The translations under genes and the position numbers were made by a program. 64,000 nt of DNA, taken from NCBI GenBank assembly GCA_030390025.1, contig CM059432.1, positions 50,160,001 to 50,224,000 of the forward strand, in the 5' to 3' direction. The notes beneath the pieces are model-generated. The model did no database searches. It was given only the letters and a program-made list of their open reading frames with translations, and was not told where the DNA came from. Source of the stretch: Squalus acanthias (lineage: Eukaryota). Each line of letters starts with the position of its first letter. The stretch's first letter is position 1. Positions 226 through 64,000 of the stretch are shown here, piece after piece.

Positions 226-2501
226 TTATGATCTAAAATTGTTGAACTCGATATTGAGTCCAGAGGGCTGTAGCATGCCTAAACGAAAGATGAGGTGCTG
301 TTCCTCGAGCTTACGCTGAGCTTCCGTGGAACAGTGTAATAGGCCGAGGACGGTGAGGTCAGAGTGGGAGTGAAGCGGTGAATTAAAGTGACAGGCCACC
401 GGGAGCTCGGGGTCCCCCTTACGGACTGAACGGAGGTGTTCCGCAAAGCGGTCACCCAATCTGCGTTTGGTCTCCCCAATGTAGAGGAGTCCACATCGTG
501 AGCAGCGAATACAGTATACTAAATTGCAGGAAGTACAAGTAAATCGCTGTTTCACCTGGAAGGGGTGTTTGGGGCCCTGGACAGTGGGAAGAGGGGAGGT
601 ATAAGGGCATGTGTTGCATCTCCTGCGCGTGCACGGGAAGGTGCCGGGCGAAGGGGAAGGGGTGCTGGGGGTGGTAGAGGAGTGGACTAGGGTGTCGCGG
701 AGGGAACGGTCCCTACGGAATGCTGAAAGGGGAGGTGAGGGGAAGATGTGTTTGGTGGTGGGATCACGCTGGAGGTGGCGGAAATGGCGGAGGATGATCC
801 GTTGAATGTGGAGGCTGGTGGGGTGAAAGGTGAGGACAAGGGGAACCCTATCGTGGTTCCGGGAGGGAGGGGCAGGGGTGAGGGCAGATGTGCGGGAGAT
901 GGAACGGACACGGTCGAGGGCCGTGTCGACCACGGTAGAGGGGAATCCTCGGTTGAGGAAAAAGGAAGACATGTCGGAAGCACTGGTATGGAAAGTGGCA
1001 TCATCAGAGCAGATGCGGCGGAGACGGAGAAACTGGGAGAATGGAATAGAGTCCTTACAGGAGGCGGGGTGGGAGGAAGTGTAGTCCAGGTAGCTGTGGG
1101 AGTCGGTGGGCTTGTAGTGAATGTTAGTCAATAACCTATCCCCAGAGATGGAGATGGAGAAGTCGAGGAAGGGAAGGGAAGAGTCGGAGATGGACCATGT
1201 GAAGGTGAGGGAAGGGTGGAAATTGGAAGCATAGTGAATGAAATGTTCTAGTTCAGGGCGAGAGCAGGAGACGGCACCGATACAGTCATCAATGTACCGG
1301 AAAAAGAGGTGAGGGAGGGGACCCGAGTAGGACTGGAACAAAGAGTGTTCCACATATCCCACGAAAAGGCAGGCATAGCTAGGACCCATGCGGGTACCCA
1401 TAGCAACACCTTTAATTTGGAGGAAATGGGTAGAGTCAAAGGAGAAGTTGTTCAATGTGAGAACAAGTTCAGCCAGGCGGAGGAGGGTGGTGGTGGATGG
1501 GGACTGGTTGGGCCTCTGTTCAAGGAAGAAGCGGAGCGCCCTCAGGCCATCCTGGTGGGGAATGGAGGTGTAGAGGGATTGTACGTCCATAGTGAAGAGG
1601 AGACGGTTGGGGCCGGGAAACTGGAAACTGTTAAAATGGCGGAGGGCATCGGAAGAGTCGCGGATGTAGGTGAAAAGAGACTGGACAAGGGGAGAAAAAA
1701 TAGAGTCGAGATAGGAAGAGATAAGTTCCGTGGGGCAAGAACAGGCTGAAATGATGGGTCTACCGGGGCAGTCCTGTTTGTGGATCTTGGGAAGGAGGTA
1801 GAAGCGGGCTGTGCGGGGTTGGGGAACTATGAGGTTGGCGGCCGTGGGGGGAAGATCTCCAGAGGAGATGAGGTCAGTGACAGTCTTGGACACGGTGGCT
1901 TGATGTTCGGTAGTGGGGTCATGGTCCAGGTGGAGGTAGGAGGAGGTGTCAGAGAGTTGGCGTTCAACTTCCGCTAGGTAGAGGTCGGTTCGCCAAACAA
2001 CAACAGCGTCACCCTTGTCAGCAGGTTTAATGACAATATCAGGGTTGGATCGGAGAGAATGGAGTGCTGCAAGTTCAGAGGGAGGTAGGTTGGAGTGAGT
2101 GAGGAGAGCAGAGAAATTGAGCTGGCCGATGTCACGGCGGCAGTTAGCAATGAAAAGATCAAGAGAGGGTAAGAGGCCAGAGGGAGGGGTCCAGGCGGAA
2201 CGAGAATTCTGAAAGCGGGAGAAAGGGTCAGCCGTGCGGGGGGAAGACTCCTGGCCAGAGAAGTGGGCACGGAGACGGAGGCGGCGGAAAAAGAGCTCAG
2301 CATCGTGCCGAGCTCGAAATTCATTGAGATGGGGGCGTAAGGGGATGAAGCTCAGGCCTTTGCTGAGGACTGATCGTTCGGAGTCAGAGAGGGGAAGGTC
2401 AGAGGGGATAGTGAAAACGCGGCAGGGGGTGAGATTGGGAGAAGGGGGGTCAGAGGAAAGTGAAGGGGAAGGAGGTTCCGGAGGGGCTTTAGTGTCCAAG
2501 A
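226..2501 (-). CDS. Penelope-like element (Neptune-type) RT + GIY-YIG endonuclease ORF, 5'-truncated but uninterrupted
   Basis: Motifs in the 226..2622 ORF: IVIKPADKG, PKIHK..GRPIIS, MDVQSLYTSIP, GVAMGTRMGPSYA, FRYIDD, linker CTRRRCNTC, LVYCIRCSRC..YIGET, two His, and the C-terminal GLN. The first ~40 aa of the tracked ORF belong to the host CR1 (junction ~2501). Bases 1-225 are probably the element's 3' non-coding/pLTR region. Confidence 0.93.
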
Positions 2502-3215
2502 GTCTATCCAATGTTCTATACAAGTTTAACATAACTTCTTTGCTTTGCAAGTCTATCCCTCTAGAATTGAACCCCAGTGCTTTGTTTGCTTTTTTAATGG
2601 CCTTATTAACCTGCTTAGGCACTATATAAATACAAGTTGTTGTTGTTGTTGTTGCTTAGCTACTTTTCGTGATTTGTGTATCTGTACCCCCAGATCCTGC
2701 TGCTCCTCTACCCCATTTAAATACTTTTTCCAAGGAGTGTCTGGTCTCCTTATTCTTCCTTCCAAAATGTACCACCTCACACTTCTCTATATTGAAGTTC
2801 ATTTGCCAATTACACGCCCATTCTGCAAGTTTATTAAAGTCTTCCTGTATTTTGTCACAGTCCTCCTCTGTATTAACTATACCCCTCAATTTGGTGTTGT
2901 CCGCAAATTTTGAAATTGTACTTCCAATTCCCGAGTCCAAATCATTTATATAAATGGTGAACAACAGTGGTCCCAGCACCGATCCCTGTGGAACACCACT
3001 TCCCACCTTTTGCCAGTCTGAAGAACTACCTTTAACCCCTACTCTCTGTTTTCTGTTTTGTAGCTAGCTTGCTCTCCATTCTGCTACTTGTCCCCTGACT
3101 CCACATGTTCTGACCTTAGTCACGAGTCTACCTTATCAAAGTGCTTTTGAAAATCCAAATATATTGCGTCGATGGAATTACCCTTGTCTACCCTTTCTGT
3201 TACTTCTTCAAAGAA
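2502..3215 (-). mobile_element. CR1 LINE ORF2 (RT) fragment
   Basis: [26 protein letters not shown] and KANKALGF motifs; similar to the CR1 at 26906-28203. Confidence 0.9.
2619..2652 (+). mobile_element. 34-bp L2/DeuSINE-type 3' tail insertion
   Basis: GCACTATATAAATACAAG(TTG)n flanked by a TGCTTAG duplication (2612-2618 and 2653-2659); same tail as the L2 end near 6415-6445. Confidence 0.7.
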
Positions 3216-7045: not shown

Positions 7046-7744
7046 CTTGGCTGATTGAGATTCTGTTCAGCTTCCTCATCTACCCCGTGCTGCTCCTTAC
7101 ATGGGAACTCCCAGCCTGTAGGAAATAAAGTGAAAGGAAATCTGTTGAAAACGCAAAACGTTCAGAGATTTAAAAAAAGATTAAAGCGGGACTAAGTGAA
7201 GGATGAGAGGGAGATACATTTGAGGAAGGAGACAGACAGAAGTGAGGAAGAGAGCTAGAAACTGATATGAAGCGATAAGGGCGAGATACAGAAGTGAAGC
7301 AGGAGTCTGAAAGAAACACAAATGCCGGAGGACAGCAAAATATTGAAGGAAGAGAGTACTAGAAACAAAGATGCAGGAAGGGCATGAGAGGCTGAGAGCT
7401 TTTGGTGGGACTCAGCAAAAAAAGTATTGCTAGACTCTGAATCAGATAGTTTTGTTCTAATATATTGGCAAGAATATATTGACCCAGCTTGTAGGTGGAG
7501 CATGCATGTGGGCAGCCTCCGTGTCCCTACCATCACCTTTTCAACGTTTCCGCCAATGTGTGTATGTTTGTCAAATTCTGTCTTTGCCGATCAGCTGGCC
7601 AGCCACCACGGTAAGTGCTTTAAACAACTTAAAGCTGATTCCAGGCACTTCATTTGCTCACATTTTATCTTGGCAAGATATTAATAAAGCAAAACTCAAC
7701 AGCTTTGCAACTTACCAATCAAAATCAGAATACAAATAATCAAT

Positions 7745-8581
7745 GCCTAGTACAAAGGAAGATGGTTGTGGTTGTTGGAGGCCAATCATCTCAGCCCCAG
7801 GACATCGCTGCAGGAGTTTGTCCAGGCAGTGTCCTCAGCCCAATTATCTTCAGCTGCTTCATCAATGACCTTCCCTCCATCATAAGGCCAGATGTGGGGC
7901 TGTTCGCTGATGATTGCACAGTGTTCAGCTCCATTCACAATTCCTCAGATAATGAAGCAGTCTATGCCTGCATACAACAAGACCTGAACAACATCCAGGC
8001 TTGGGCTGATAAATGGCAATTAACATTTGCGCCACACAAGTGCCGGGCAATGACCATCTCCAATAAGAAAGCGTCTAACCCACCTCCCCTTGAAATTCAA
8101 TTAGCCTTATCATCACAGAATCTCCAACCATCAACATCCAGAACAAAGCAGCCCACTTGATTGGCACCCCATCCACCACCTCAAACATTCACTCCCTCCA
8201 CCACCGGCGTACCGTGGCTGCAGTGTGTACCATCTACAAGATGCACTGCAGCAACTCGCCAAAGCCTTCTTCGACAACACCTCCCAAACCTGCAACCTCT
8301 ACTACCTAGAACGACAAGGGCATCAGGTGCATGGGAACCCCACCACCTCCAAGCCATACACCATCCTGACTTGGAAATATAGCGCCGTTCCTTCATTGTC
8401 ACTGGGTCAAAATCCTGGAACTCCCTCCCTAACAGCACTGTGGGAGTACCTTCACCACACGGTCTGCAGTGGTTCAAGAAGTTGGCTCACCACCACCTTT
8501 TCAAGGGCAATTAGGGATGGGCAATAAATTCTGGCCTTGCCAGCGACGCCCACATTCCATGAATGAATGAATAAAAAAAAA
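7745..8581 (+). mobile_element. 3' part of the single-ORF LINE family seen at 60890 (with internal deletion)
   Basis: GVCPGSVLSP, GLFADDCT; 3' end gggcaattagggatgggcaataaa..cacattccatgaatgaat-polyA, shared with the copies at 55103 and 60890. Confidence 0.85.
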
Positions 8582-9624
8582 CTGGGGGTGGTTATCACCA
8601 TTGATATATGTACCTTCCCCCACCCTCGCACAATCCTGTCCCCTCCCCTTGCAACAGCTTAATTCTGACTCACTGTAAGCAAAGCTATAGGAGATCTGTT
8701 AATAGTACAAAATAATGAAAATATTGGATTAGCTGAATATTCTTGGCGCTAAATAATTTACCACTGATTTTCAGGGCTTTTGCCCCTAATTTTCTAGTTC
8801 ACAAGGCAAGAGATATCTGCAGACCTTTAAACATCAAAAAAACAGCAGCAGTGCATCTTTCAGCCAGTTGAGGGCTCTTGCTTTGTATATAGTACTTTGT
8901 AATGTCATTCAAATAGTTTCCTAATAGTGCGTAGGTAATAACAAAGATGAGTATTGATTCTGCTTTCTCATTGAGAAACTAACTATAAACATTAACACCC
9001 ATTCCACCTACTGTACAACCCAGCCATAATATTATGAAGCACATAGATTGTATTTCTATTAAAAAATTGAACATCATCCAATTAACCAGTCATGGGTTTA
9101 TGACAACTTGCCACAAATCTGCACTGGATTTAAGGGATGGAAGTCTCTCTAGTGAAACTTCAAGACAGCAGATTTGTGGACAGTTTCTTGAGGAAAATAA
9201 AACTACTTTGATCAAAGTGCATGCTGTTTTATTTCCTTTAGGTAATGATTGTGGCTTGTTTCATTAGGCACTGTTCATTCTGTATGGACAATGCTTAAAA
9301 GAAGATAATGTTGAAATAGTAGTCATGTTATAGTTACATTGAACATACAGATAAACAGAGGGTATACCATGGCCAGTAGTGTGGCATAATAACTACTAGC
9401 ACAAGTAAAGCTGACTGAATAGCTCATGAAGAATGGAACAGTTTATCATGTCTTCTATCACGTCTTCTACTTACAACACTTGAAGTATTTTTAAACCAGA
9501 AAAAAAGTTAATGTAATCAATATTGTTGTAGCTATTCCTCAGATTGCGTATTCTGCACACAGTCAGTTTTATTGTCGTCTGTGCATACATCAGATTTTTT
9601 TTCCTAAACATTCTGAAATACTTT

Positions 9625-15887: not shown

Positions 15888-16355
15888 GGGTACAGTAGCA
15901 TAGTGGTTATGTTACTGGGCTAATAATCTAGAGGTCTGGACGAATGATCCAGAGACGTGAGTTCAAATCCTTCCACGGCAGCTGGGGAATTTAAATTCAG
16001 TTAATTAAATAAATCTGGAATAAAAAGCTGGTATCAGTAATGGTAACCACAAAACTATCGGATTGTTGTAAAAAAAAAAAAATCTGGTTCACTAATGTCC
16101 TTTAGGGAAGGAAATCTGCCATCCTTACCTGGTCTGGCCTATATGTGACTCCAGACCCACAGCAATGTGGTTGATTCTTAGCTGCCCTCTGAAATGGCCT
16201 AGCAAGCCATTCAGTTGTACCAAACTGCTACAAAGAACTCACTGTGGGAGTACCTTCACCTCATGGACTGCAGCGGTTCAAGACGGTGGCTCACCACCAC
16301 CAAGGACAATTAGGGATGGGCAATAAATGCCCACATCCCATGAACGAATTTTTTT
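15888..16355 (+). mobile_element. tRNA-derived SINE = 5' head + 3' tail of the LINE at 60890
   Basis: A box TAGCATAGTGG, B box GTTCAAATC. 15888-16237 aligns with 60890-61238; from 16240 it aligns with the LINE 3' end (63970 onward, 8436-8570, 55775-55910). Confidence 0.88.
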
Positions 16356-21281: not shown

Positions 21282-22969
21282 ATTAACTGGGATAGAATCA
21301 GTGTAAAAGGTATAGAGAGTGCAGAATTCTTAAAATGCATTCAGGAGAACTTTTTTAGCCAGTACTTAGCAAGCCCAATAAGAGAGAGGGCGGATCCGGA
21401 CTTGGTTTTCGGGAATGAAGCTGGGCAGGTGGAAGGGGTATCGGTGGGAGAGCATTTTGGTGGTAGTGATCATAATTCAGTTAGATTTAGCATAATTATA
21501 GAAAAGGACAAAGATAGACCAAGAGTAAAAGTTCTCAATTGGGGAAAGGCCAATTTTACTAAGCTGAGCTGTGATTTAGCAAAAGTGGACTGGAAACAGC
21601 TGCTTGAAGGTAAATCAGTGTCAGAGCAGTGGGAAGCATTCAAGAAGTAGATAGTGAGGGTTCAGAGCAAATATGTTCCCACAAAGAAAAAGGGTGGGAC
21701 TCCCAAATCTAGAACCCCCTGGATGTCAAGTGGCATACAGGGTAGGATAAGGCAAAAAAGGGAAGCTTATGTCAGATACCGAGACCTAAATACTGCAGAA
21801 AGCCTGAAGGAGTATAGAAAATGCAGTGGTGAAATTAAAAAGGAAATTAGAAAGCAAAGAGAGGGCATGAAAAAATATTGGCAAGTAAAATCAAGCAAAA
21901 CCCAATGATGTTTTATAAATACATAAAGAGCAAGAGAATAACGAAGGAAAGAGTAGGGCCTATTAGAAATCAAAAAGGTAACCTGTGTGGAGGCAGAAGA
22001 TGTGGGGATGGTTCTTAATGAATACTTTGCATCTGTCTTCACAAAAGAGAGGGACAATGCAGACATTGTAATTAAGGAGGAGGAATGTGAAATATTAGAT
22101 GAGATAAACTTAGTGAGGGGTTTAGCATTTTTGAAAGTAGATAAATCGACAGGCCCAGATGAAATGTACCCCAGGCTGTTAAGAGAAGCAAGGGAGGAAA
22201 TAGCAGAGGCTCTGACCATCATTTTCCAATCCTCTCTGGCTACAGGTGTGGTACCTGAGGACTGGAGGACAGCTAAAGTTGTACCGTTGTTTAAAAAGGC
22301 AGAAAGGGATAGATCGAGTAATTACAGGCCAGTTAGCCTAACCTCGGTGATTGGCAAATTGTTGGAAAAATTCTGAGGGACTGTATTAATTGTCATTTAG
22401 AAAGGCACAGCTTAATCAAAGACAGTCAGCATGGATTTGTTAAGGGAAGGTTGTGTTTGACTAACTTGATTGAATTTTTTGAGGAGTTAACAAGGAGGGT
22501 TAATGAGCATAGTGCATTTGATGTAGTCTACATGGATTTTAGCAAAGGTTTTGACAAGGTCTCACATGGCAGACTGGTCAGAAATGTAAAAGCCCATGGG
22601 ATCCAAGGGAAAGTTGGATCCAAAATTGGCTCAGTGGCAGAAGCAAAGGGTAATGATCGACGGTTTTTTGTTGACTGGAAGACTGTTTCCAGTGGGTTTC
22701 CGCAGAGCTCAGTACTGGGTCTCTTGCTTTTTGTGGTATATATCAATGATTTAGACTTCAATGTAGGGGGCATGATTAAGAAGTTTGCAGATGATACAAA
22801 AATTGGCCGTGTGGTTGATAGTGAGGAAGAAAGCTGCAGACTGCAGGAAGATATCAATGAACTGGTCAGGTGGGCAGATAGGTGGCAAATGGAATTCAAT
22901 CCAGAGAAGTGTAAGATAATGCATTTGGGGAGGGTTAACAAGACATGGCAGTACACAATAAATGGTACA

Positions 22970-23925
22970 GCAAGTAATTAGGAAGGCAAATGGAATGTTG
23001 GCCTTTATTGCAAGGGCATGGAGTATAAAAGTGGAGAAGTCTTACTACAACTGTACTTCTTAGCAGTCCCTCGGAACCGAGGATGACTTGCTTCCACACT
23101 AAAAATGAGTTCTCAGGTGACTGATGAGTTCCATGAGGGTCCTGATATCCCAGGTCCCTAACTTCATTTTAAAGGGTGGAAGATGCCTGTGCATGAATTC
23201 TTTTAATGTGGGGTGGCCGTTGCACACCAGCTACCACACGGGCTTGACAGAGCAAGGTCTTGGTCCAATGGCAAGGGGATCCAAGACGATTGGAAACCAG
23301 GCTGTGCTACATCGGCCTACAACTGTACAGGCCGTTGGTGAGACCACACCTGGAGTACTGTGTACAGTTTTGGTCTCCTTATTTAAGGAGGGATATACTT
23401 GCATTGGAGGCAGTTCAGAGAAAGTTCACGAGGTTAATTCCTGAGATGAAGGGGTTGTCTTATGAGGAAAGGTTGAGCAGGTTGGGCCTATACTCATTGG
23501 AGTTTAGAAGAATGAGAGGTGATCTTATTGAAACGTATAAGATTCTGAGGGGGCTTGACAGGGTAGATGCAGAGAGGATGTTTTCCCTCATGGGGGAGTC
23601 TAGAACTAGGGAGCATAGTTTCAGAATAAGGGGTCGCCCATTTAAAACAGAGATGAGGAGGAATTTCTTCTCTCAGAGGGTCGTAAATCTTTGGAATTCT
23701 CTATCCCAGAGACCTGTGGAGGCTGGGTCATTGAATATATTTAAATATTTAAGGTGAAGATAGACAGATTTTTGAACGATAAGGGAGTCAAGGGTTATGG
23801 GGAGCGGGCAGGAAAGTGGAGTTGAGGCCAAGACCAGATCAGCCATGATCTTATTGAATGGCGGAGCAGGCTCGAGGGGCCAAATGGCCTACTCCTGCTC
23901 CTATTTCTTATGTTCTTATGTTCTT
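22970..23925 (+). mobile_element. Second CR1 3' fragment nested in CR1
   Basis: LVRPHLEYCVQFWSPY; tail (ttcttatg)n; host resumes at atcctgagaagtgtagagg. Confidence 0.85.
23057..23316 (-). mobile_element. Short non-autonomous retroelement, probably RTE-derived
   Basis: 12-bp TSD CTACAACTGTAC (23045-23056 and 23317-23328); the minus-strand 3' end reads gtggaagcaagtcatcctcg..gagggactgctaagaag, resembling an RTE tail. Confidence 0.65.
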
Positions 23926-25049
23926 ATCCTGAGAAGTGTAGAGGAACAGAGGGACCTTGGAGTGCATGTTCACAGATCCCTGAAGGTAGCAGAACAGGTA
24001 GATAAGGTGGTTAAGAAGGCATACTGGATACTTTCCTTTATTAGCTGAGGCATAGAATATAAGAGCTGGGAGGTTATACTAGAACTGTATAAAACACTAG
24101 TTAGGCCACAGCTAGAGTACTGCGTACAGTTCTGGTCACCACATTACAGGAAAGATGTGATTGCACTAAAGAGGGTGCAGAGGAGATTTACGAGGATGTT
24201 GCCAGGACTGGAGAATTTTAGCTATGAGGAAAGATTGGATAGGCTGGGGTTGTTTTCTTTGGAACAAAGGAGGCTGAGGGGAGACTTAATTAAGGTGTAT
24301 AAAATTATGAGGGGCCTAGATAGTGTGGATAGGAAGGATCTATTTCCCTTAGCAGAGAGGTCAATAACCAGGGGGCATAGATTTAAAGTAATTGGTAGAA
24401 GGATTAGAGGGCAGCTAAGGAGAATTTTTTTCACCCAGAGGGTGGTGGGGGTCTGGAACTCACTGCCTGAAAGGGTGGTAGAGGCAGAAACCCTCATCAC
24501 ATTTAAAAAGTGCTTGGATATGCACTTGAAGTGCCGTAACCTACAAGGCTACAGACCAAGAGCTGGAAAGTGGGATTAGGTTGGATAGCTCTTTTTCGGC
24601 TGGCACGGACAAGATGGGCCAAGTGGGCTCCTTCTGTGCCATAAATTTCTATGATTCCAGGATTCTATAGAGTGGATAATGTTGAGCTAATCTTCAGGTG
24701 GGACAAAACAGGGCTATGATGTACACACAGGAGCCCACACTGAGAACTGTCATGTAACTAGTTATTTTTTTTAAATCTCAAACTTCAGATATTTGGAATT
24801 TCTATTTATAGAAGAGTTTATTTTCAAAGTTTTTTGGGGCTAATTTAGTTGTTCATCAAGGTGAGGAATGTTGGAATGCGCACTCCCTCACAGATCCCAA
24901 TATCTTATTTTCCAATGCCCCACCAGCCTGCCTTTAGCTTCTCTTAGAAAGCTTGCCATATAGTGTCAAATTAGGCACTATTCTTGCTAGGAACTTTGTT
25001 GAGAATACCCAAAATCATTTGACAAAGAACTCTTACAACCAGCAGAGAA

Positions 25050-44030: not shown

Positions 44031-45032
44031 GGGTCCCACACCTGGTGGTGGAAGAAGAGGAGGACAATAACTAGTTTAACTGGCAGCTCTACTGACCAAC
44101 ACTGAACAGGAGAGGTGTCAGAAGTCAAACCCCCAACTTCCAAACTATCCAAAAGGAAAACAAAGCACATTTTCAAGGTCAGTTCTTAATGGCGAGTGAG
44201 GCGGGAAGGATAATAGTCCCCTTTAAAAGGAAAGCCATCCTAAACTTAAATAGTCAGGTTTCACAGAAAATTACTATTGAAGAAAAGTTTTCTAGCCTGC
44301 TGTGGCATTGTTTATTTTTTTTATTGACGAGGAGTGACTATTGGACGATTGGAGGAGTATACGAGGACACCTGCAAAATCACAATATCCAGTTAATATAA
44401 CAAAAAAGTCTCACTGTTACACTCCCCGCTCCCCCCACCAACACCCCCCCCCCCACCCCCGCCACCACCCTGCCCCCGCCCTTTTCCCAGTTATGCTATT
44501 GTGCATGTCTAGATATTGGATAGCAAAAATAGGCTCCTTATTGTGAGGGATGCTGATCTGCTTACAGAAAAGTCCAGTGACACTAGCCTGAGAGAATATC
44601 TAAGGCAGGCCCAAAATTTTTAACAATCTCCAATTGTACACTATTACCATCACAAACCTGTCTAAGACTCCTGGGGGGCGAAATTCATTATCGCCCAGGA
44701 ATGGGCGCTAACTTCGGAAAAGTTTGAAATTTAGCACCAGGCGCTAATGAATCTCGCTGCAAGCAAAATTCAGTGTCATTGCTCAAAGAAAGAACAGGAG
44801 CGCTAAATCAAGCGCTAATTACCTAGCTCAGTGGCGTTAGACTCAAAGCGCTAAGCAATTTCAGGTGCAGTCTAATTGCTTGTCATCATTGCCACAGCCT
44901 CTTTCCAGTTCTTAAAGGGGAGGTTCAATCATGCTGCAGAACCTCATTCTCAGCATTGCTGGTTTTGCAGCTGTGTCAGAAAGCAGCAGAAGGCCAAGGA
45001 GAAAGAACCGGACCACTGAAGGAGGTGCCATT

Positions 45033-46830
45033 ATGACAGATTAACGGCCCAGGGAGAGAGCTCGCAGATTCTACGACCAATCATTGGAGACCTTGGTCTT
45101 TGCTATGGAGAGATGGAGAGCGGTGCTGTACCCGGCAAGTGGCAGGAGGCCCTCGCCACAAGTCTTCCGTGCCATGTGGAGGGAGGTAGCCCAGCAGGAC
45201 CCACACACAGTTCAGGAAGAAATTTAACGACCTCACTCGGGTGGTCAGGGTGAGTCAATGCTTCAACAAATGCTACATACCACCATCTGAACCTTAGTCT
45301 GCACACACTGCCCAAAGCACCACACCCCCAGCACTCACCTACCAACAATCTCCACCTACTAACACTCACACCCACATCACACACCTTGCACACAATGACA
45401 GCTATTCAACTATGGCTGGCACATCACCCAAACACATTGCTCCACACTCACTCACACACTTTCCTCTCTCTTGCAGGCCAAGGTCGCTCACAACAGGAGG
45501 GAGCAGGAGCGCACAGGCGGGGGACAACCTGACACCCAACCACTGTCTGAGCTGGAGAATCGAGTGCTGCAAATCATTTGGCACCAGGTGGTGAGCACCG
45601 TGGCCACCGGCGAAGTTGACCCCATTGGGGACAACAACGGTGTGTTCATCCCTACTCCTTCTTCTCACATCCCACTTCCCCCTCACCCCACAAGCCTTTC
45701 CCACTTTCCAGCTAATCATGCTGTATGCATGCATTTCCCCCTGTCTCTGAGGGTACCATAGAGAGCGAGGCGGAAGAAGAGGAGGACAAAGGACACACCA
45801 CATCACTGCATGTCTCACCCGCAGGCACCAGCTCAGATACTGGCACTACGCATTCTTTAGAGGCTAGTATAGTAGTGGGATCTGCACAGGGTGATGCACC
45901 GGGAACGAGTGGGCTGCAGCAAGACCAGGGGGAAAGGGTAGCTCGGGGGCCAGCTCCCCGGATGCTAGCTCGCGCGTGAGTTCTGCTGCACAGGACTCAG
46001 ATGAGGACCTCGATGGGGAGACCTTTAGAAGAAGGGTGATGGGCATGTACATGGAGATGATAGGTGCAATGGCAAGGGTGCCTGAGAGCCATTCAGCAAT
46101 GATAAGGAGCGTGGAGGAGTCCACCTCCAACATTGCACAAGGCTCTGCGCAGAGCATGAAGCCCATCATTTGCAGTCTGCAACGGATGGTGGACTCCCAG
46201 TTTGACCATGGCGACCCAGACCTGATGCCGCATGTGATGGGCGATGTCGCAGCTTCCATTGCAGCACAGGCGGAAGCCACGCAACGTCTTAGTGCTGTCA
46301 TGCAGTCTATGCTTGGTGCCATCGATTCTCAGACTGCTCTCCTGCAGTCTCAGCTTGATGCCATGCAAGCTCTGACTGCTGCCACCGTGGCTGGGTCTAC
46401 CGCCGTCGACCGGGGCTTTCACGGTGTCGCAGCAGGCCAGTAATCTGTGCTCCAACAAATTGGTAGTGATGCTGAGGTGCTGCCCCCGGGGGAGTGGCAG
46501 TGGGTCAGTGGAGCAGGAACCTGCTGTCCTCTCTGAGGATGACAGCATTCCTGCTCCCACCACTGCCACTCCGCCATTGCCCTTGTCGCTGTCTATCATC
46601 CAGCCAGCCCAGACTGCTGCCGCCCTTGCTGAGGTGGTGCAGTCTACAGCCGGAACTGGTCGAGGGCGTCCTACAAGGCCATCTGAAGTCTTCCGCATGG
46701 ACACTCAGCAGCCTTCCACACGTCGTGCTGCAGCCACTGGGCCAACACTTCTTAGGAGCACTAGAGTAGGCAAAGGCACAGTAACGAGGGGCACTAAGGG
46801 ATTGCACAAGGTGAATATTGTTGTTGTAAA
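45033..46830 (+). pseudogene. Harbinger Myb/SANT-like (trihelix) partner gene, spliced
   Basis: Exon 1 RPRERARRF..LETLV..WREVA..RKKFNDL; GT..AG intron 45250-45476; exon 2 AKVAHNRREQERTGGG; a further exon from ~45752; stops present. Confidence 0.8.
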
Positions 46831-46976
46831 TATGAGTTCACTGATTATTGATAAGTTTATTAATTGGCTTTGGATGATTTTGTGGTGTCTCTCATTTCAG
46901 CTTTGCGCTGTGATATGGCCTGCGACAGGAATGGAATGATGGGGATGTGGTGAGCAACGGGGATCTGGGGTTTAAT

Positions 46977-47950
46977 TTATTGGAACCACAGTCTGATGAG
47001 GCTGTCATGGACCGCCCTTCCAGAAGGCCAATTGAGTGGCTGCCTCCTCCCTCACTCCTGTTCCTCCTCCTCCTCCTCCTCGTCTTCTTCTTCCTCCTTG
47101 TCCTCATCCTCCCCCTCCTCTCCCTCTTCCTCCTCCTGAGGAGGTCCCGCAATCCTTGGTGGCAAGGGCTGGGCCCTCATGATGGCCAGATTGTGGAGCA
47201 TGCAGCACACCATGACGAAATGGGATAACTGCTCCAGCGAGTACTGGAGGGCTCCTCCCGAGTGATCAAGGCAGCTTGAGCACCCCGATGGTCTGCTTGA
47301 TGATGTTCCTGGTGGCAGCATAGCTCTCATTATATAAGTGCTGAGCAGGAGTGCTGGGTTTGCGGAGGGGAGTCATGAGCCAGGTGGAGAGTGGATAGCC
47401 CTTGTCTCCGACCAGCCAGCCACAAGCTTGATGTGGCAGCTGGAAGAATGCTGGAACACTGGTCTGGCGCAGGATGAAGACATCGTGGCTGCTGCCAGGA
47501 TAGCGGGCATTCACATTGAGGATTCACTGTCTGTGATCGTTCACCAACTGCACATTAAGTGAGTGGTAGCCTTTGCAGTTACGGAAGATCTTAGGATTGT
47601 TATGCGGTGACCGCAAAGCTACGTGGGTGCAGTCAATGGCGCCCTGCACCATGGGGAAGCCCGCTAACCTGGCAAACCCACATGCACACTTGTTCTGCTT
47701 CTCTCTGGTGATGGGGAAGGAAATGTAGTCCCTTCTCCTACTGTAGAGAGCCTCCGTGACCTCACGGATGCATCCATGGACAGCGAACTGCGAAATGTTC
47801 GCTATATCTCCTGTTGCAGACTGGAAGGAACCGTTGGCGAAGAAATTGAGGGCGACGGTGACCTTGACTGCCACTGAGAGAGCTGTGGTCGACCTGATCT
47901 GAGGCTTGCTCCTCTTGGCCCACAAGCAATGCTGTAAAGGCACCTGTTGG
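46977..47950 (-). pseudogene. Harbinger DDE transposase, frameshifted and N-terminally damaged
   Basis: VKVTVALNFFANGSFQ, GAIDCTHV, YPGSSHD, VGDKGYP, LDHSGGALQY, CCMLHN. Confidence 0.9.
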
Positions 47951-48354
47951 CTCCGGTTGCTTACCTTGCTTGCAGGAGGGAGCAGATACTGTAGAGTCAG
48001 GGGAGCACTCTTGCTCCTCCTGGCTCCACAGAAATGTTGTCAATTCTTTTTAAAAACTGACTTTTTAGTGGCAGCCATTGCTTAGGCTGCAGTGGCTGTT
48101 TAAGAATCCTCAGTGGAGCATGCTCAGCATCTGAACTACCCAGTTTGGCAGAGGGGTCCTGAAACAGGCCTATGTAAGGGACTCAACGTCTGTTTTTGGT
48201 TACTGCCAGGAGTGCCACAATGAAATTAAAATCAAGGGGCTTCTATAACAGGCAGCCAATCCGCAATGCCAATTTTACATGTGGGGGTCAGTTGAAAATC
48301 TACCCCACTGAATCAAGGAGATGAGCTAACATGCAGGGTAACCAACTAACAACA

Positions 48355-48470: not shown

Positions 48471-48839
48471 TCAGGAATTGGGTTGAGCGAAACAATGGGA
48501 GGTGTGGAGAAAGAAAAGTAAATAGAAATTGAGCAAAATAATGGAAGGCTGAGATAGAAACAGAACCTGAGGAATTAAGGCAACAGGGCAGACAGAAAAA
48601 AGAAATAGAGACTGTTAAAAAAAAAAGTCAGAGGAACAAAGGGCAAATGTGATGGGGAGACAGAGGCTTTATCAATTCTTTATCAATTCCTTGGTCCTCC
48701 TTTGCTGAATTCTAAAATCCTCCCAATCCTCAGGCTTACAACTCTTTTTGGCAACATTATAAGCCTCTTCCTGAAATCTAATACTATCTTTAACTTCTCT
48801 TGTTAGCCACGGTAGGGCCATTTTCCCTGTAGGGTTTCT

Positions 48840-49245
48840 ATTTTTTTGTATTCGCTTATGGGATCTGGGCGTCGCTGGCAAGGCCAGCATTTATTGCCCA
48901 TCCCTAGTTGCCCTTGAGAAGGTGGTGGTGAGCCAGACTGGTTTCCTCCCACAGTCCAAAGATGTGCGGGTTAGGTTGATTTGGCTATGATAAATTGACC
49001 CTTAGTGTTAGGGGGGGATTAAATACGTGGGGTTACGGGGATAGGGTGGGATATGTGTCGGTGCAGGCTCGATGGGCCGAAATGGCCTCTATCTGCACTG
49101 TGGGGATTCTGTGATTCTGTGTGATTCTTGAACCGCTGCAGTCCGTGTGGTGATGGTACTTCCACAGTGCTGTTAGGTAGGGAGTTCCAGGATTTTGACC
49201 CAGCGACGATGAAGGATCGGCGATATACTTCTAAGTCAGGATGGT
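48840..49245 (-). mobile_element. 3' end of the single-ORF LINE family (as at 60890)
   Basis: Reverse complement of the tail (tttattgcccatccctagttgcccttgagaaggtggtgg); interrupted by a SINE. Confidence 0.8.
48937..49127 (+). mobile_element. 5'-truncated V-domain SINE (HE1-like) with CR1-type tail
   Basis: ggtttcctcccacagtccaaagatgtgc..gttaggttgatt..aaattg; tail gatgggccgaaatggcct..(attctgtg)n. Confidence 0.65.
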
Positions 49246-51133: not shown

Positions 51134-52159
51134 AGTAAAGGAATACAAATCGACAAAGCATATATAGATAGAGAACAATGCATGTGTAACGTACAATGGC
51201 AGACGACTACATTTAATCCTCCTGACTGCCTTTTGTCACACCTACGCCATGTTCTTCGCAGCCTTCAACATGTCATTGATGACGACGAACACCTCGCTAA
51301 GGCCATCCCCACGCCTCCACTACTTGCCTTCAAACAGCCGCCTAACCTCAGAAGTACCATCGTTCGCAGCAAATTACCCAGCTTTCAGGATAACAGCGAC
51401 CACGACACCACACAACCCTGCCACGGCAACCTCTGCAAGACATGCCAGATCATCAACACAAATACCATCATCACACGTGAGGACACTACCCACCAGGTAC
51501 ATGGTACATACTCATGTGACTCGGCCAACGTTGTCTACCTGATACGTTGCAGGAAAGAATGCACCGCGGCATGGTACATCGGCGAGACCATGCAGACACT
51601 GAGACAACGTATGAACGGACACCGCGCAACAATCGCCAGGCAGGATTGTTACCTCCCAGTCGGGGAACACTTCAGCAGTCAAGGACATTCAGCCTCGGAA
51701 AAGCGGGTAAGCGTTCTCCAAGGCGGCCTTCGAGACACACGACAACGCAAAATCATCGAGCAGAAACTGATAGCCAAGTTCCGCACTCATGAGGACGGCC
51801 TCAACCGGGATCTTGGGTTCATGTCACGATACATGACGTAGAGTCATCCAGACTCGAGTCGTCGTTGGCTTGTTCACAGATGTGATTTCCAGTAAAAAAA
51901 AGTAAAAATGTTAAAGTTTATCGTTTTCCATACCGACTGCAGCTTTTGACACATTAGACCCCCTGTGACCCCACCTCATTGTCTCAGTTGTATCTTGCTA
52001 TGTCTTTGATGTGGTGCCTTCCTGGCTGACCTGATTGTTTATCTGCCGAGGTGTGACAAAAGGCAGTCAGGAGGATTAAATGTAGTCGTCTGCCATTGTA
52101 CGTTACACATGCATTGTTCTCTATCTATATATGCTTTGTCGATTTTGTATTCCTTCACT

Positions 52160-53952: not shown

Positions 53953-55970
53953 GAGAAGAGAGCGCAAAACACAAGGGAGAGAACCGGAGGTGGTCCTCCA
54001 CAGATTTCCCAGTTGACAACTGCAGAGGAGGTAGCACTAGAGATCAGTGGTGTTTCAGCGTCCCAGCTACCTGGTGACAGAATTAAATATCAGCGACCCA
54101 CATGTCATACAACACTCAGTCATGTTGACTTAATTTCAGCAGCGAGTGAAATATGATCATCTTCATAATGCTAAGTTGCAACATTCTTACCTTGGCAGTA
54201 CTAATTCATATTTTTTCTCTCCACCAGGGCCTTCACGCGTACAGCAGCGGTCAGTGGACCTCATGGATGACGAATCCTCAGAGGAGCTGGTTCTTTCTGA
54301 GGGTGCACCGTCCCAGGACTCATGCTTATCATGCACCAGCTCAGATACTCGCATTTCAGTGGGTTTTCACCTGGTGACTCACAGTTCACAAGTGAACAAG
54401 AGCAGATGGTGGTGGCAGGGACAGCTGTGGAGAATCTGCGTCGGAGGGCACGGCCCTCTCCAAGCTCTACTCAGCTGGACACAGATGCTGCACCCCAAGG
54501 GACATTGTGAAATGGATAATCATTGAGGGGCAGCAGAAAATCTACGACATACTGGCAGGCCTTCCATGCACACTGTCCACAATTGCAGAGAAATGGAGGA
54601 GTTCAGCTCAAGCATGAGTGTGTTGATGTCTTCTTCCATGGATGGATTGGCCAACTCTGTGGGTCATTAATCATGGCAATCAAATGAGTCCATGCAGGCC
54701 TTGATCACAGCTGTGCAGATTCTGGATGCCAACAAGTTTGGTGCCTTAATAGGATGTCAGATGTCATAGCAGTGGCCTTACAGCGCGTCACTGATCTGCA
54801 CCAAGCTGCTCTCCAGTGACTGAAGTGTGGCAAAAGGGGATATGGAAGTGGGAACTCTACTCAAAGCGCTCCCACTTCTCACCCGTTGCCTCCCTCTCAG
54901 CCAGTAACCGACATGCTGCCTCCTCTCCCAATGGGCGAGTCTGTCCCTGCACTGGTGGCTGTCTTACGCGGAGCCCTCACGGGCTCCAACACCCAGAGGA
55001 CGTCAGCCAAAAGCATCTCAACAGTCAAAGCAAGCTACCTTTACTTCTGCTGAAGCCACAGGGTTTGCACCACGTAGGAGCAGTAGGAACAGGACGAGAA
55101 GTTCAGGCTTGGGCTGATAATTGGCAAGTAATATTTGCGCCACACAAGTGCCAGGCAATGACTAACTCCAACAAGCGAGAATCTAACCACCGCTCCTTGA
55201 CATTCAACGGCATTACTATCGCCGAATCCCCCACCATCAACATCCTGGGGGTCATCATTGACCAGAAACTTAACTGGACCAGCCACATAAATACTGTGGC
55301 AACAAGAGCAGGTCAGAGGTTGGGTATTCTGCGACGAGTGTCTCACCTCCTGACTCCCCAAAGCCTTTCCTCCATCTACAAGGCACAAATCAGGAGTGTG
55401 ACGGAATACTCTCCACTTGCCTGGATGAGTGCAGCTCCAACAACACTCAAAAAGCTTGACATCATCCAGGACAAAGCAGTCCACTTGATCGACACCCCAT
55501 CCACTACCTTAAACATTCACTCCCTCCACCACCGGCGCACTGTGGCTGCAGTGTGTACCATCTACAAGATGCACTGCAGCAACTTGCCAAGGATTCTTCG
55601 ACAGCACCTCCCAAACCCTCGACCTCTACCACCTAGAAGGACAAGCGCAGCAGGTGCATGGGAACACCATCACCTACATGTTCCCCTCCAAGTCACACAC
55701 CATCCTGACTTGGAAATATATCGCCGATCCTTCATCGTCGCTGGGTCAAAATCCTGGAACTCCCTCCCTAACAGCACTGTGGGAGTACAGTCACCACAGG
55801 GACTGCAGCGGTTCAAGAAGGCAGCTCACCACCACCTTCTCAAGGGCAATTAGGGATGGGCAATAAATTCTGGTCTTGCCAGCAACGCCCACATCCCAAG
55901 AACAAATAAAAAAAGAAAAGCTTTGTAGTTCAACAATGTTATGCACATAGGTGTTTGACAAAATGTTATG
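53953..55970 (+). pseudogene. Harbinger Myb/SANT partner gene remnant (exon 2 onward), interrupted by a LINE
   Basis: ttgcag/EKRAQNTRERTGGGPP, homologous to the exon at 45477; downstream similarity to 45750-46830. Confidence 0.7.
55103..55918 (+). mobile_element. 3' fragment of the single-ORF LINE family
   Basis: QAWADNWQVIFAPHKC, ILGVIIDQKLNW, IYKAQIRS; shared tail plus poly(A). Confidence 0.9.
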
Positions 55971-57463: not shown

Positions 57464-58226
57464 TTGAGCTTCAGGTGGTCATGAAAGGCGTTATATAAAT
57501 GCAAGTCTTTCTTTTATTGGTGGGATCCCTCAAGGGAGCCATCAGCCAAGTTTGAAGGGAGTATCCTTTGTCTTCTAACAGCCATCCCTTAACTCTGCTT
57601 GCAGGTCCAAAGAGGTCAGGGAGCTTAGACTGCCACAGGATGAAAGCATCATAGCAGCTCCTCAGGAATCTGGCACACACCTGCACGAACCTTTTCTTGT
57701 GGTTGCACACCAGCTGAACATCGATCGAATGGAATCTCTTGTAGTTGATGAATACTCCTGGTTAATCTGGTGGTAGGCAGATTGCCACGTGTGTGCAGTC
57801 GATGACGCCCGGCACCTGTGGCAAGCCAGCCAGAGACGTAAACCCGAGCGCCCACTCATTCTGACTGGTATCATTACAGGCAAAATTAACATAATTGTCG
57901 GCTCTGGCAAACAATTCATCCGTCACCTGCCTTATGCATTTATGTGCAACTGACTGGGAGATCTTGGATATGTATCCGGTAGCATCTTCGAGGGATCCAG
58001 AAGCAAAAAATTTGAGGGCGATGTTCACTTTCCCAGCCACTAGTAATGCATGGCCATCAGGTCCAGCAGGGAGCAGGTCTTCTTCTAGGAAGCCGCAGAT
58101 GTCTGCCTCCACTTGACGTGACAATCTCAGCCTCCAGAAGCACTGCTCTTCTGCGAGGTCAAGAAAGCTGAACCTCTGCCTATACACGCTGTTGCATGGG
58201 TAGTGCCTCCTGCAACCTGGACCTCT

Positions 58227-58442
58227 CTGCTGGTGCTCCCTTCCCTCCTGGTGCTCCCCTCCCTGCTGGTGCTCCCTTCCCTCCTGGTGCTCCCCTCCCT
58301 GCTGGTGCTCCCCTCCCTGCTGGTGCTCCCCTCCCTGCTGGTGCTCCCCTCCCTGCTGGTGCTCCCCTCCCTGCTGGTGCTCCCCTCCCTGCTGGTGCTC
58401 CCCTCCCTGCTGGTGCTCCCCTCCCTGCTGGTGCTCCCCTCC
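58227..58442. repeat. 18-bp tandem repeat x12 (CTGCTGGTGCTCCCCTCC)
   Basis: Encodes (GGEHQQ)n in the transposase N-terminus; variant units are themselves duplicated. Confidence 0.95.
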
Positions 58443-59024
58443 CTGCTGCTCCCCTCTCTGTTGCTCCCTTCTCTGTTGACCAGCTACAGGTCTCTCCACA
58501 GCAGGCTGCTGCTTCTGCTGATGGTCATCTTGCTCCTCACCCAAGGTCCAATCTAAGGCAGCCATGGCGCCCCCCGTCCTGATCTTGTGAGTCTCAACAC
58601 CTCCAAAGTGCACAAAGTAGCCTCTCAACACAAGTACTCTCAACAAACCCTTTCCCAGTGGGAGGCAAGAAAGCAGCTGTGAGCACTTAGTATTTATTGA
58701 TGTCCGTATTCGTGACATTTAATTAGCCTGTGGCGGATCGCCACCTAAAACGGGCATAATCCACTCTTCCGTCTGTGGACAAATTTCCAGCACCTTCCCT
58801 TTAAGGCACCTTACCTTTAAGGCAGAAGGGGGCGGGGCCTCATGTTTTACCCAGAGAATTCTGGGAGCTTTTCAGTCTGCCATAGTGTGCCATGCTGTGA
58901 TTAAAAAGTCTCTTGTTTAACACAAATGGATTCAGCCTTAATTCGTGTTTTGCGGCAGCCTCAACAAGCCCCATGAACTGCCGTACAATCTTCTCGCCTT
59001 CCTTTCAATGGCAAGTTTCAAGAA

Positions 59025-60889: not shown

Positions 60890-60980
60890 GGGTACGGTAG
60901 CATAGTGGTTATGTTACTGGACTAGTAATCCAGAGGCCTGGACTAATGATCCAGAGCGATAAGTTCAAATCCCACCACGG
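60890..60980 (+). promoter_or_regulatory. Pol III type-2 internal promoter-like A/B boxes
   Basis: TAGCATAGTGG (60898-60908) and GTTCAAATC (60963-60971); the same boxes occur in the 15888 copy. Confidence 0.7.
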
Positions 60981-63900
60981 CAGCTGTGGAATTAAATTTG
61001 ATGAATTAATTAAATCTGGAATAAAAAAACGCTAATATCAGTAATGGTGACCATGAAACTACCGGATTGTCATAAAAACTCATCTGGTTCACTAATGTCC
61101 TTTAGAGAAGGAAATCTGCCACCCTTGCCCGGTCTGGCCTATATGAGACTCCAGACCCACAGCAATGTGGTTCACTCCTAATTGCCCTCTGAAATTGCCT
61201 AGCAAGCCACTCAGTTGTACCAAGAAGTATACAAAGAATAAAACTGGACGGATCACCCGGCATTGACCTGGGCACCGGACACGACAAAGGCACAGCCAGC
61301 CCAGTCGACCCTGCAAAGTCCTCCTCACTAGCATCTGGGGACTTGTGCCAAAATTGGGAGAGCTGTCCCACAGATTAGTCAAGCAACAGCCTGACTTAGT
61401 GATATTCACAGAATCATACCTTTCAGCCAACATCCCTGACTCCTCCATCACCATCCCTGGGTATGTTCTGTCCCACCGGAAGAACAGAGGTGGCGGCACA
61501 GTGGCATACAGTCGGGAGGGAGTGGCCCTGAGAGTCCTCAACATTGACTCGAAACCCCATGAAGTCTTATGGCATCAGGTAAAATATGAGCAAGGAAACC
61601 TCCTGCTGATTACCACCTACCGCCCTCCCGTAGCTGATGAATCAGTACTCCTCCAAGTTGAACATCACTTAGAAGAAGCACTGAGGGTAGCAAGGGCACA
61701 AACATACTCTGGGTGGGGGACTTCAATGTCCATCACCAAGAGTGGCTCACTAGTACCACTGCTGACCGAGCTAGCCGAGCCCTGAAGGACATACCTGCCA
61801 GTCTGGGCCTGCAGCAGGGGGTGAGAGAACCAACAAGAGGGAAAAACCTACTTGATGAAATTCCCACCTAGCTACCTGTAGCAGATACATCTGTCCATGA
61901 CAGTATTGGTAGGAGTAACCACCGAACAGTCCTTGTGGAGACAAAGTCCCGTCTTCAAACTGAGGACACCCTCCATCATGTTGTGTGGCACTACCACCGT
62001 GCTAAATGGGATAGATTGAGAGCAGGTCTAGCAGCTCAAAACTGGGCATCAATGAGGTGCTGTGGGCCATCAGCAGCAGCAGAATTGTATTCCGCCACAA
62101 TCTGTAACTCTACCATTACCATCAAGCCAGGGGACCAACCCTGGTTCAATGAGGAGTGCAGAAGAGCATGCCAGGAGCAGCACCTAGCATACCTAAAAAT
62201 GAGGTGCCAACCTGGTGAAGCTACAACACAGGACTACATACATGTAAAACAGCAGAAGCAGCATGATATTGACATAGCTAAGCGATCCCACAACCAACTG
62301 ATAAGGTCAAAGCTCTGCAGTCTTGCCACATCCAGTCGTGAATGGTGGTGGACAATTAAACAATTAACAGGAGGAGAAGGCTCCATGAATATCTCCATCT
62401 TCAATGATGGCAGAGCCCAGCACGTGAGTGCAAAAGCCAAGGCTGAAGCGTTTGCAACCATCTTCAGCTAGAAGTGCCGAATGCATGATCCATCTAGGCC
62501 TCCCCCGGAGGTCCCCACCATCACAGAAGCCAGTCTTCAGCCAATTCGATATACTCCACGTGATATCAAGAAATGGCTGAGCACACTGGATACAGCAAAG
62601 ACAATGGGCCCTGACAACATCCCGGCTGTCGTGCTGAAGAATTGTGCTCCAGAACTAGCCCCACTTCTAGCCAAGCTGTTCCAGTACAGCTACAACACTG
62701 GTATTTAACCGACAATGTGGAAAACTGCCCTAGTATGTCCTTTCCACAAAAAGCAGGACAAATCCAATCCAGCCAATTAACACCCCATCAGTCTACTCTC
62801 AATCATCAACAAAGTGATGGAAGGTGTTGTCGACAGTGCTATCAAGCAGCACTTACTCACCAATTACCTGCTCACTGATGCTCAGTTTGAGTTCTGCCAG
62901 GACCACTCAGCTCCAGACGTCATTACAGCCTTAGTGCAAACATGGACAAAAGAGCTGAATTCCAGAGGTGAGGTGAGAGTGACTGCCCTTGACATCAAGG
63001 CAGCATTTGACCGAGTGTGGCATCGAGGAGTCCTAGTAAAACTGAAGTCAATGGGAATCAGGGGGAAAATGCTCCACCGGCTGGAGTCATACCTAGATTG
63101 TTGTTGTTGGAGGCCAATCATTTCAGCCTCAAGACATTGCTGCAGAAGTTCCTCAGGGCAGTATCCTAGTCCCAACCATTTTCATCTGCTTCATCAATGA
63201 CCTTCCCTCCATCATCAGGTCAGAAGTGGGGATGTTCGCTGTTGTTCAGTTCCAATCGCAACTCCTCAGATAATGAAGCAGTCAGTGCCCACATGCAGCA
63301 AGACCTAGACGACATTCAGGCTTGGGCAAGTAACATTCACGCCACACAAGTATTAGGCAATGACTATCTCCAACAAGAGAGAGTCTAACCACCACCCCTT
63401 GACATTCAAAAGCATTACCATCAATGAATCCCCCACCATCAACATCCTGGGGGTCACCATTTAGCATAAAATTAACTGGACCAGCCACATAAATACTGTG
63501 GCTACAAAAGCAGGTCAGAGGCTGGGTATTCTGTGGTGAGTGACTCACCTCCGAGTCCTGACGCCCCAAAGCCTTTCCGCCATCTATGAGGCACAAGACA
63601 GGAGTGTGATGGAATACTCTCCACTTGCCTGGATGAGTGCATCTCCAACAACACTCAGGAAACACCCAGGACAAAGCAGCCCGCTTGATTGGCATTTGGC
63701 ATCCCATCCACCACCTTAAACATTCACTCCCTCCACCACCGGCGCACCGTGGCTGAAGTGTGCACCATCTACAAGATGCACTGCAGCAACTCGCCAAGGC
63801 TTCTTCGACAGCACCTCACAAACCCGCAACCTTTACCACCTAAAAGGACAAGGGCAGCAGGCGCATGGGAACACCACCACCTCCAAGTCACACATCATCC

Positions 63901-64000
63901 TGACTTTGAAGTATATCGCCGTTCCTTCATCGTTGCTGGGTCAAATTCCTGGCACTCCCTCCCTAACAGCACTGTGGGAGTACCTTCACCACACGGACTG
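60890..64000 (+). mobile_element. Near full-length single-ORF APE-RT LINE (CR1/L2 group) with a tRNA-derived SINE head as 5' UTR; this copy is degenerate
   Basis: APE: KVLLTSIWGL, DLVIFTES, RGGG, YRPP, GDFNVHH. RT: GPDNIP, ALDIKAAFDRVWH, VPQGS (the ADD motif is deleted here but present in the 7.9-kb copy). Several stops and frameshifts; runs off the window. Confidence 0.9.

Follow-up and report, generated by a model that had tools for sequence, protein, structure and literature searches.

Full-length copies of the Zenon LINE in the genome of Squalus acanthias have a tRNA-like head at their 5′ end and a sense strand depleted of the motifs at which RNA polymerase III (Pol III) stops. Our reading, to which we give a probability of roughly 0.5, is that elasmobranch Zenon is an autonomous element whose 3.3-kb coding RNA is made by Pol III, that terminators have been purged from it since before the split of sharks and rays, down to its codon and phenylalanine use, and that translation of this RNA does without both a cap and an in-frame AUG. 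Transcription by Pol III from an internal promoter is probably the best explanation for the missing stop motifs. The family is already known under the name Zenon; the Pol III-type mode of transcription that we infer for it is plausible and, in the literature searched, undescribed.

The Zenon copy in the window and its family

The window is a stretch of 64,000 nt of the Squalus acanthias genome (CM059432.1, positions 50,160,001–50,224,000 of the forward strand), and its Zenon-derived features are listed in Table 1. The copy that begins at 60890 continues about 110 nt beyond the window end, reaching its A-tail, and, over the sites that align, shares 91% identity with the consensus of subfamily A; its endonuclease fragment, taken alone, has no Pfam match. 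Judging by sequence similarity, the element is a member of the elasmobranch Zenon LINE family of the CR1 group, already published by Stuart et al. 2026 (PMC13343379). By eye, our consensus differs from that of SquAca_Zenon-1 at about three places in the first 400 letters, the lengths are similar (3314 nt for SquAca_Zenon-1 and about 3310 nt here), and the two share the lack of an ORF1 and a poly-A tail (PMC13343379). The terms 'tRNA' and 'polymerase III' have no occurrences in the main text of that paper, which therefore does not discuss the head and the T deficit.

Table 1. Zenon-derived features of the window, in positions of the 64,000-nt stretch.
Feature	Position	Strand	Basis
Full-length Zenon LINE copy, decayed, older subfamily B	60890..64000	+	alignment to consensus
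Pol III A-box-like motif in tRNA-like head	60898..60908	+	motif scan; box A pattern after PMC10886601
Pol III B-box-like motif, 54 nt 3′ of A box	60963..60971	+	motif scan
Head and body, ~335 nt, common to LINE and SINE derivative	60890..61225	+	
Endonuclease part of single ORF, broken in window copy	61267..61785	+	relatives with PF14529
Linker and reverse transcriptase part of ORF, fragmented	61872..63200	+	relatives with PF00078
TVT3-type motif, in neither subfamily consensus	62702..62706	+	motif scan
Sole TTTT of window copy, private C>T change	63179..63182	+	comparison with consensus
T2CT2, single weak terminator-like motif retained by family consensus	63801..63805	+	motif scan
SINE composed of LINE head and LINE 3′ end	15888..16330	+	
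5′-truncated copy of Zenon LINE, 93.6%	55098..55919	+	
5′-truncated Zenon copy with internal deletion; private T4 at 8498	7743..8581	+	
Zenon LINE 3′-end fragment, interrupted	48835..49245	-	

A search of the genome (3.7 Gb), in which 40 of 43,837 candidates were scored, yielded the 29 copies on which the consensus is built, with one locus (L022) excluded as rearranged. The consensus of about 3.3 kb (~3310 nt) is composed of the tRNA-like head, a single ORF of 973 codons that starts after the 335-nt head and codes for an endonuclease followed by a reverse transcriptase, and an A-tail; an A-rich tail is present at most of 99 3′ ends. ORF1 is absent from the consensus, and besides the main ORF there is only a 48-codon upstream ORF (consensus 364–510, near 61238 in the window) that is out of frame and overlaps the AUG-less start of the main ORF, where the first in-frame ATG does not occur before codon 287. 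Of the 34 copies that span its start, 20 keep the ATG of the upstream ORF and 12 read ATA, the form of subfamily B, to which the window copy conforms.

Nineteen of the 29 best-matching loci start at the head and have their first 5′ base in common with the window copy, a count that is biased because the query included the head and that contains one locus (L022) in which a SINE lies next to a broken LINE. Because the loci begin there, and because the 5′ flanks are unrelated among the 16 copies inspected, the head is taken to be part of the element. Sixteen long copies were examined for target-site duplications, and none of 7 nt or more was present. The subfamilies A and B have 63 differences and are 98% alike, and thus represent nearly a single evolutionary sample. 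The dN/dS ratio is 0.17 between the subfamilies, compared to 1.00 for private changes, so the headed master copies made working protein; the ORF is under purifying selection.

The family is abundant, with 36.6 kb in 1 Mb of sequence taken at regular intervals from five contigs, and looking for a subfamily of greater age and divergence brought back mostly the same Zenon family. In a tree of reverse transcriptases, built without a named Zenon reference, Zenon groups (95/96) with eight database proteins, one of which is from a crab, and this group stands apart from the CR1, L2 and RTE elements of the host. Many short deletions flanked by microhomology are present in the Zenon copies (L002–L030 and others): 84 of 242 deletions of at least 5 nt have three or more matching bases, where about 6.5% is expected, and some of the short deletions recur at one site in several copies.

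The tRNA-like head

A and B boxes are found near the 5′ end of the element at a spacing of 54 nt, compared with the usual 30–40 (PMC8466645). Neither ARAGORN nor Rfam at its gathering score calls a tRNA in the head, the best Rfam tRNA match having 22.4 bits (E 0.82), and folding of the head is not significant (z −0.3 to −1.5). The head is seen by eye at the 5′ end of all seven published elasmobranch Zenon consensus sequences, which come from five species and include sharks and a ray; within their first 400 letters, also by eye, the boxes are visible in the shark sequences and the B box is degenerate in the ray. The consensus sequences from hagfish (two) and coelacanth (one) are without the head and have runs of four or more T by eye within their first 400 letters, the visible part of each consensus, and their lower-case ends may be unreliable. 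Upstream of the metagenomic relatives, A and B boxes were found in none of 67, 43 of which have more than 300 nt of upstream DNA. Two headless Zenon-like leaders (L091:380–490 and EptBur_Zenon-2) share a short repeated motif by eye; this motif may be a ribozyme, whose place the tRNA head may have taken in the shark element.

TTTT runs on the sense strand

The original prediction held that this LINE avoids TTTT, the Pol III terminator, on its sense strand, and its counts are correct. There is one run of four or more T (T4) in 60890–64000 (+), at 63179, together with 19 runs of four or more A (A4); the truncated copy at 55100–55900 has none, and the one at 7700–8600 has one, at 8498. Both of the T4 runs had been read as copy-specific mutations, and each is a C>T change against the consensus. 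The consensus (29 copies, 3.3 kb) has no T4 and seven TTT, all isolated, and the 23 T4 runs among 80 aligned copies are all at different positions. Similarly, the 36.6 kb of sense strand in the 1-Mb sample contain 11 T4 and 147 A4 runs. The scarcity of TTTT on the sense strand of the Zenon copy is a real feature, and the accompanying codon bias is present too, with phenylalanine encoded by three TTT and 15 TTC codons in the Zenon ORF.

The original prediction named, as refuting it, a depletion no greater than chance expectation or than in headless relatives, and for TTTT alone this is what the counts show. At 20% T, between 1.5 and 3.8 runs are expected by chance, and the zero of the consensus is within the expectation from dinucleotide and codon shuffles (1.1–1.9). 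The window copy has one T4 where 5.2 are expected from base shuffles (P = 0.03) and 3.2 from dinucleotide shuffles (P = 0.115); the corresponding expectations for the consensus are 3.8 (P = 0.027) and 1.5 (P = 0.21). Such absence is not rare among controls: a headless RTE family of 17% T in this genome is itself T4-free for about 3.3 kb, and the Harbinger-type stretch of the window (44890–48000, −) likewise has no T4. The TTTT count, underpowered and equalled by this headless RTE, was dropped as a diagnostic, and absence of TTTT on its own is weak evidence.

The CR1 element at 21300–24600, with which the Zenon copy had been contrasted, does have many TTTT (21), but was rejected as a control for being composite and compositionally unlike Zenon (25% T, with a C-poor strand). 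It is formed of two nested CR1 pieces, with the segment at ~22968–23925 interrupting an older element (query 1669–2626 is missing from relatives). The CR1 family consensus has 15 T4 and a TTT:TTC ratio of 26:10, and its composition differs from that of Zenon.

Degenerate terminators and T clusters

Human Pol III stops not only at T4 but also at TVT3, T3VT, T2AT2 and T2CT2, with T2CT2 stopping 15% of polymerases, and is barely stopped by isolated T3 and T2GT2 (PMC3141230); termination at TVT3 agrees in PMC8466645. The motif set used here (T4+, TVT3, T3VT and T2A/CT2; PMC3141230) was chosen once the TTT deficit was known, and the stopping efficiencies attached to it come from human Pol III. The degenerate-terminator test, not TTTT, carries the case for Pol III.

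Both subfamily consensus sequences have no T4 and one weak terminator motif. In subfamily A this motif is a T2CT2, where 11.2 motifs are expected from base shuffles (0/1000) and 6.0 from dinucleotide shuffles (10/2000); subfamily B has one where 6.8 are expected (9/2000 shuffles), and also a T2GT2, of the inactive type. The window copy has three, where 10.6 are expected (0/1000 shuffles). The deficit is strand-specific, the antisense strand having 35 motifs where 32.9 are expected. Genomic Zenon copies have 1.2 motifs per kb, compared to 2.5–10.9 in eight other clusters. When trinucleotides are preserved in the shuffles the deficit fades (1 vs 3.5; 181/2000, P = 0.09), and the signal is therefore mostly the TT and TTT deficit itself. 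TT is depleted in Zenon (rho 0.70), the ORF has five TTT where 14.5 and 11.3 are expected (P = 0.0003 and 0.004), and the third base preceding TT in the ORF is C 12 times and never T. A set of the same motifs with G in place of T also falls somewhat short of expectation (20 vs 27.5, P = 0.014).

The ratio of four-of-five-T clusters to the codon-shuffled expectation is 0.17 in Zenon, the minimum of 76 ORFs, with the next at 0.64; these comprise nine ORFs of this genome, eight of them the same-genome consensus controls, and 67 of 80 metagenome loci, most of which are far richer in T than Zenon, the other 13 loci being excluded for want of a clean ORF of 300 codons. The eight consensus ORFs and the 67 loci took the place of the CR1 as controls. 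At 1.85%, the phenylalanine content is the minimum among 22 proteins. In the aligned part, phenylalanine is more frequent than in Zenon in 116 of 120 database relatives, many of them probably from AT-rich hosts. Predicted read-through, computed from rough human efficiencies of which some are interpolated, is 0.85 for Zenon, compared to a median of 0.06 for its dinucleotide shuffles and to 0.003 for RTE, or 0.29 when just the part before the last run is counted. Changes to T that are shared rather than private show no significant filter: 0/43 shared and 20/1115 private changes create T4, 1/43 and 115/1115 create TTT (P = 0.059), and 4/43 and 80/1115 create four-of-five clusters.

Other repeats of the same genome

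None of the eight other retroelement consensus ORFs of the host has a comparable deficit of T clusters or motifs. The RTE and Penelope families are both T-poorer (17% T) than Zenon and have a TT rho of 0.95–0.98; their consensus sequences have 7 motifs (7.2 expected) and 16 motifs (12.0 expected), respectively, and thus no deficit. The headless RTE family (L351–L355) has a 1085-codon consensus ORF, is without a B box, and has its sole T4+ run about 80 nt before the 3′ end; several RTE copies are spaced ~5.6 kb apart on contig C25. The headless Penelope ORF is low in TTT (7 vs 11.6–13.3, P = 0.02–0.03; TTT:TTC 5:27) and keeps three T4+ runs. In summary of the avoidance proposal, TTTT alone fails to support it, whereas TT, TTT and the degenerate terminators are depleted in Zenon, and the motif deficit is absent from the RTE and Penelope consensus sequences, which is consistent with avoidance of Pol III termination.

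Several other repeats of the window and genome have features of their own. The young Penelope family (L213:4200–7400; window 51230–51805, +) has copies that are ~98% identical and an ORF of 921 codons that is intact; its sense strand is T-poor and its terminal repeats are partly inverted. A Penelope-type open frame of 809 codons (window 226–2655, −) lies inside a CR1 and has weak reverse transcriptase and GIY-YIG matches. The stretch 44890–48000 (−), which we take to be Harbinger-type from its protein motifs, is almost without A4 and T4 over 3 kb, with no T4 in 3111 nt and 12 motifs where 11.9 are expected. Another Harbinger-type frame (window 57762–58718, −) contains short EHQQGG-like peptide repeats arranged in tandem.

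The 3′ end, the SINE derivative and expression

A SINE derivative of ~480 nt joins the Zenon head to the LINE 3′ end. Of 99 tails found, 86 could be scored, and in 34 of these two or more T precede the A-run, compared to 675/1569 in the genome background; the commonest form has a single T. Because T-runs in the tail are at background, a built-in terminal terminator between AATAAA and the A-tail, as in the T+ SINE model, is not supported. The element is covered by contigs of four presumed-RNA runs, in which SINE-type joints are visible; the contigs carry no strand, start or end.

A proposed transcription cycle and its alternatives

Internal stops are most likely scarce because the RNA is made by Pol III, and from the anatomy of the element and its motif deficit we infer the polymerase, the termination site and the translation route as follows. 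Pol III would initiate at the first base of the head, and every full-length copy would therefore retain the promoter. Transcription would cross the 3.3 kb of head, ORF and A-tail, and would end at a T-run in the flanking DNA. An internal stop arising in a master copy would cost it the 3′ end required for target-primed reverse transcription, and such lineages would therefore die out. The Zenon RNA would be without a normal cap, its translation would proceed without an in-frame AUG, and the SINE would be an internally deleted derivative sharing promoter and tail with the LINE.

The pattern could also reflect composition only, with a mutation bias giving a sense strand poor in T and TT, an RNA made by Pol II, and a head that is the captured front end of a SINE. 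RTE and Penelope are likewise T-poor with few T4, the deficit weakens once trinucleotides are preserved, and the comparison of shared with private changes is not significant, all as this would predict; yet at a lower T content than Zenon these two families keep TT and the motifs at the levels given above, the choice of C over T at third positions before TT is complete, sharks and the ray alike have the head at the 5′ end, and the head brings two to three AATAAA within the first 360 nt, with none in RTE. We consider this explanation unlikely. Selection could instead act against U-rich stretches in a Pol II RNA, not on termination, as RNase L-type nucleases cut at UU and there are U-rich decay and processing signals. 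That the UU deficit is confined to the RNA strand would suit such selection, but UA is not more depleted in Zenon (TA 0.66) than in RTE, Penelope and L2 (0.46–0.62), pyrimidine tracts are at expectation, and the eight other host retroelement ORFs are free of a comparable deficit, making it improbable.

Mixed use is conceivable, in which Pol III RNA is the retrotransposed template and other copies supply the protein through their Pol II read-through RNAs. It accounts for the deficit, avoids translation of an uncapped RNA and suits an ORF with its first in-frame ATG so far downstream, but the low dN/dS of the headed lineages fits a protein that acts in cis on the copied RNA, and we regard mixed use as very improbable. 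Avoidance of the element's own endonuclease target is unlikely because the antisense strand is not depleted, and splice-site avoidance was rejected, pyrimidine tracts being at expectation.

Relationship to known elements

Reviews describe LINEs as Pol II-made, and SINEs as Pol III-made, short and non-coding (PMC5786205, PMC10886601). SINEs are given as 100–700 bp and non-coding, Pol III processivity is said to limit them to ~700 bp, which counts against the Pol III reading of Zenon, and autonomous elements are said to require Pol II (PMC10886601). The tRNA-derived SINEs (SINE2) are similar to Zenon in having a 5′ head with A and B boxes, no internal terminator and an A-tail, and SINEs of the T− type (Alu, ID) end at downstream T-runs (PMC8466645). 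Zenon differs from SINE2 in its 3.3-kb length and its 973-codon ORF under purifying selection; "short and non-coding" fits the derivative only.

Among LINEs, RTE-1_DAn and elements related to it are mentioned in one sentence as having a tRNA-like sequence (Kojima 2018, PMC5786205), the one paper of the literature searched in which the name occurs; they belong to the RTE clade, and the consulted sections of that review do not describe the position of the tRNA sequence, promoter function or T content. The bipartite non-autonomous LINEs (Bov-A/Bov-tA, RIME and Vingi derivatives) are composed of LINE 5′ and 3′ ends, as is the Zenon SINE, but in those cases it is the short element to which a tRNA head is added, and the LINE is regarded as Pol II-made (PMC5786205). 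Pol III has been described at coding promoters, giving short RNAs that end at T4 (PMC11185800). In the literature searched, which lay mostly outside subscription journals and Repbase notes, we found no description of a Pol III-made coding LINE. In Zenon the head is on the coding element itself.

R2 is a precedent for a non-LTR element with non-Pol II transcription and with translation that requires neither a cap nor an AUG, and is co-transcribed by Pol I within the rDNA, without a promoter of its own. Pol III has reportedly been active on the human L1 promoter, a report that the literature searched did not confirm. On the translation of R2, nothing was found in PMC8501958.

A Pol III-made coding LINE, if true, would end the divide between Pol II-made LINEs and Pol III-made SINEs. 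SINE birth would then be possible by deletion within a headed LINE, termination signals would shape codon and amino-acid use, and Zenon would offer a natural model for translation of a long Pol III RNA. The abundance of Zenon, together with standard transcription assays, makes the claim testable.
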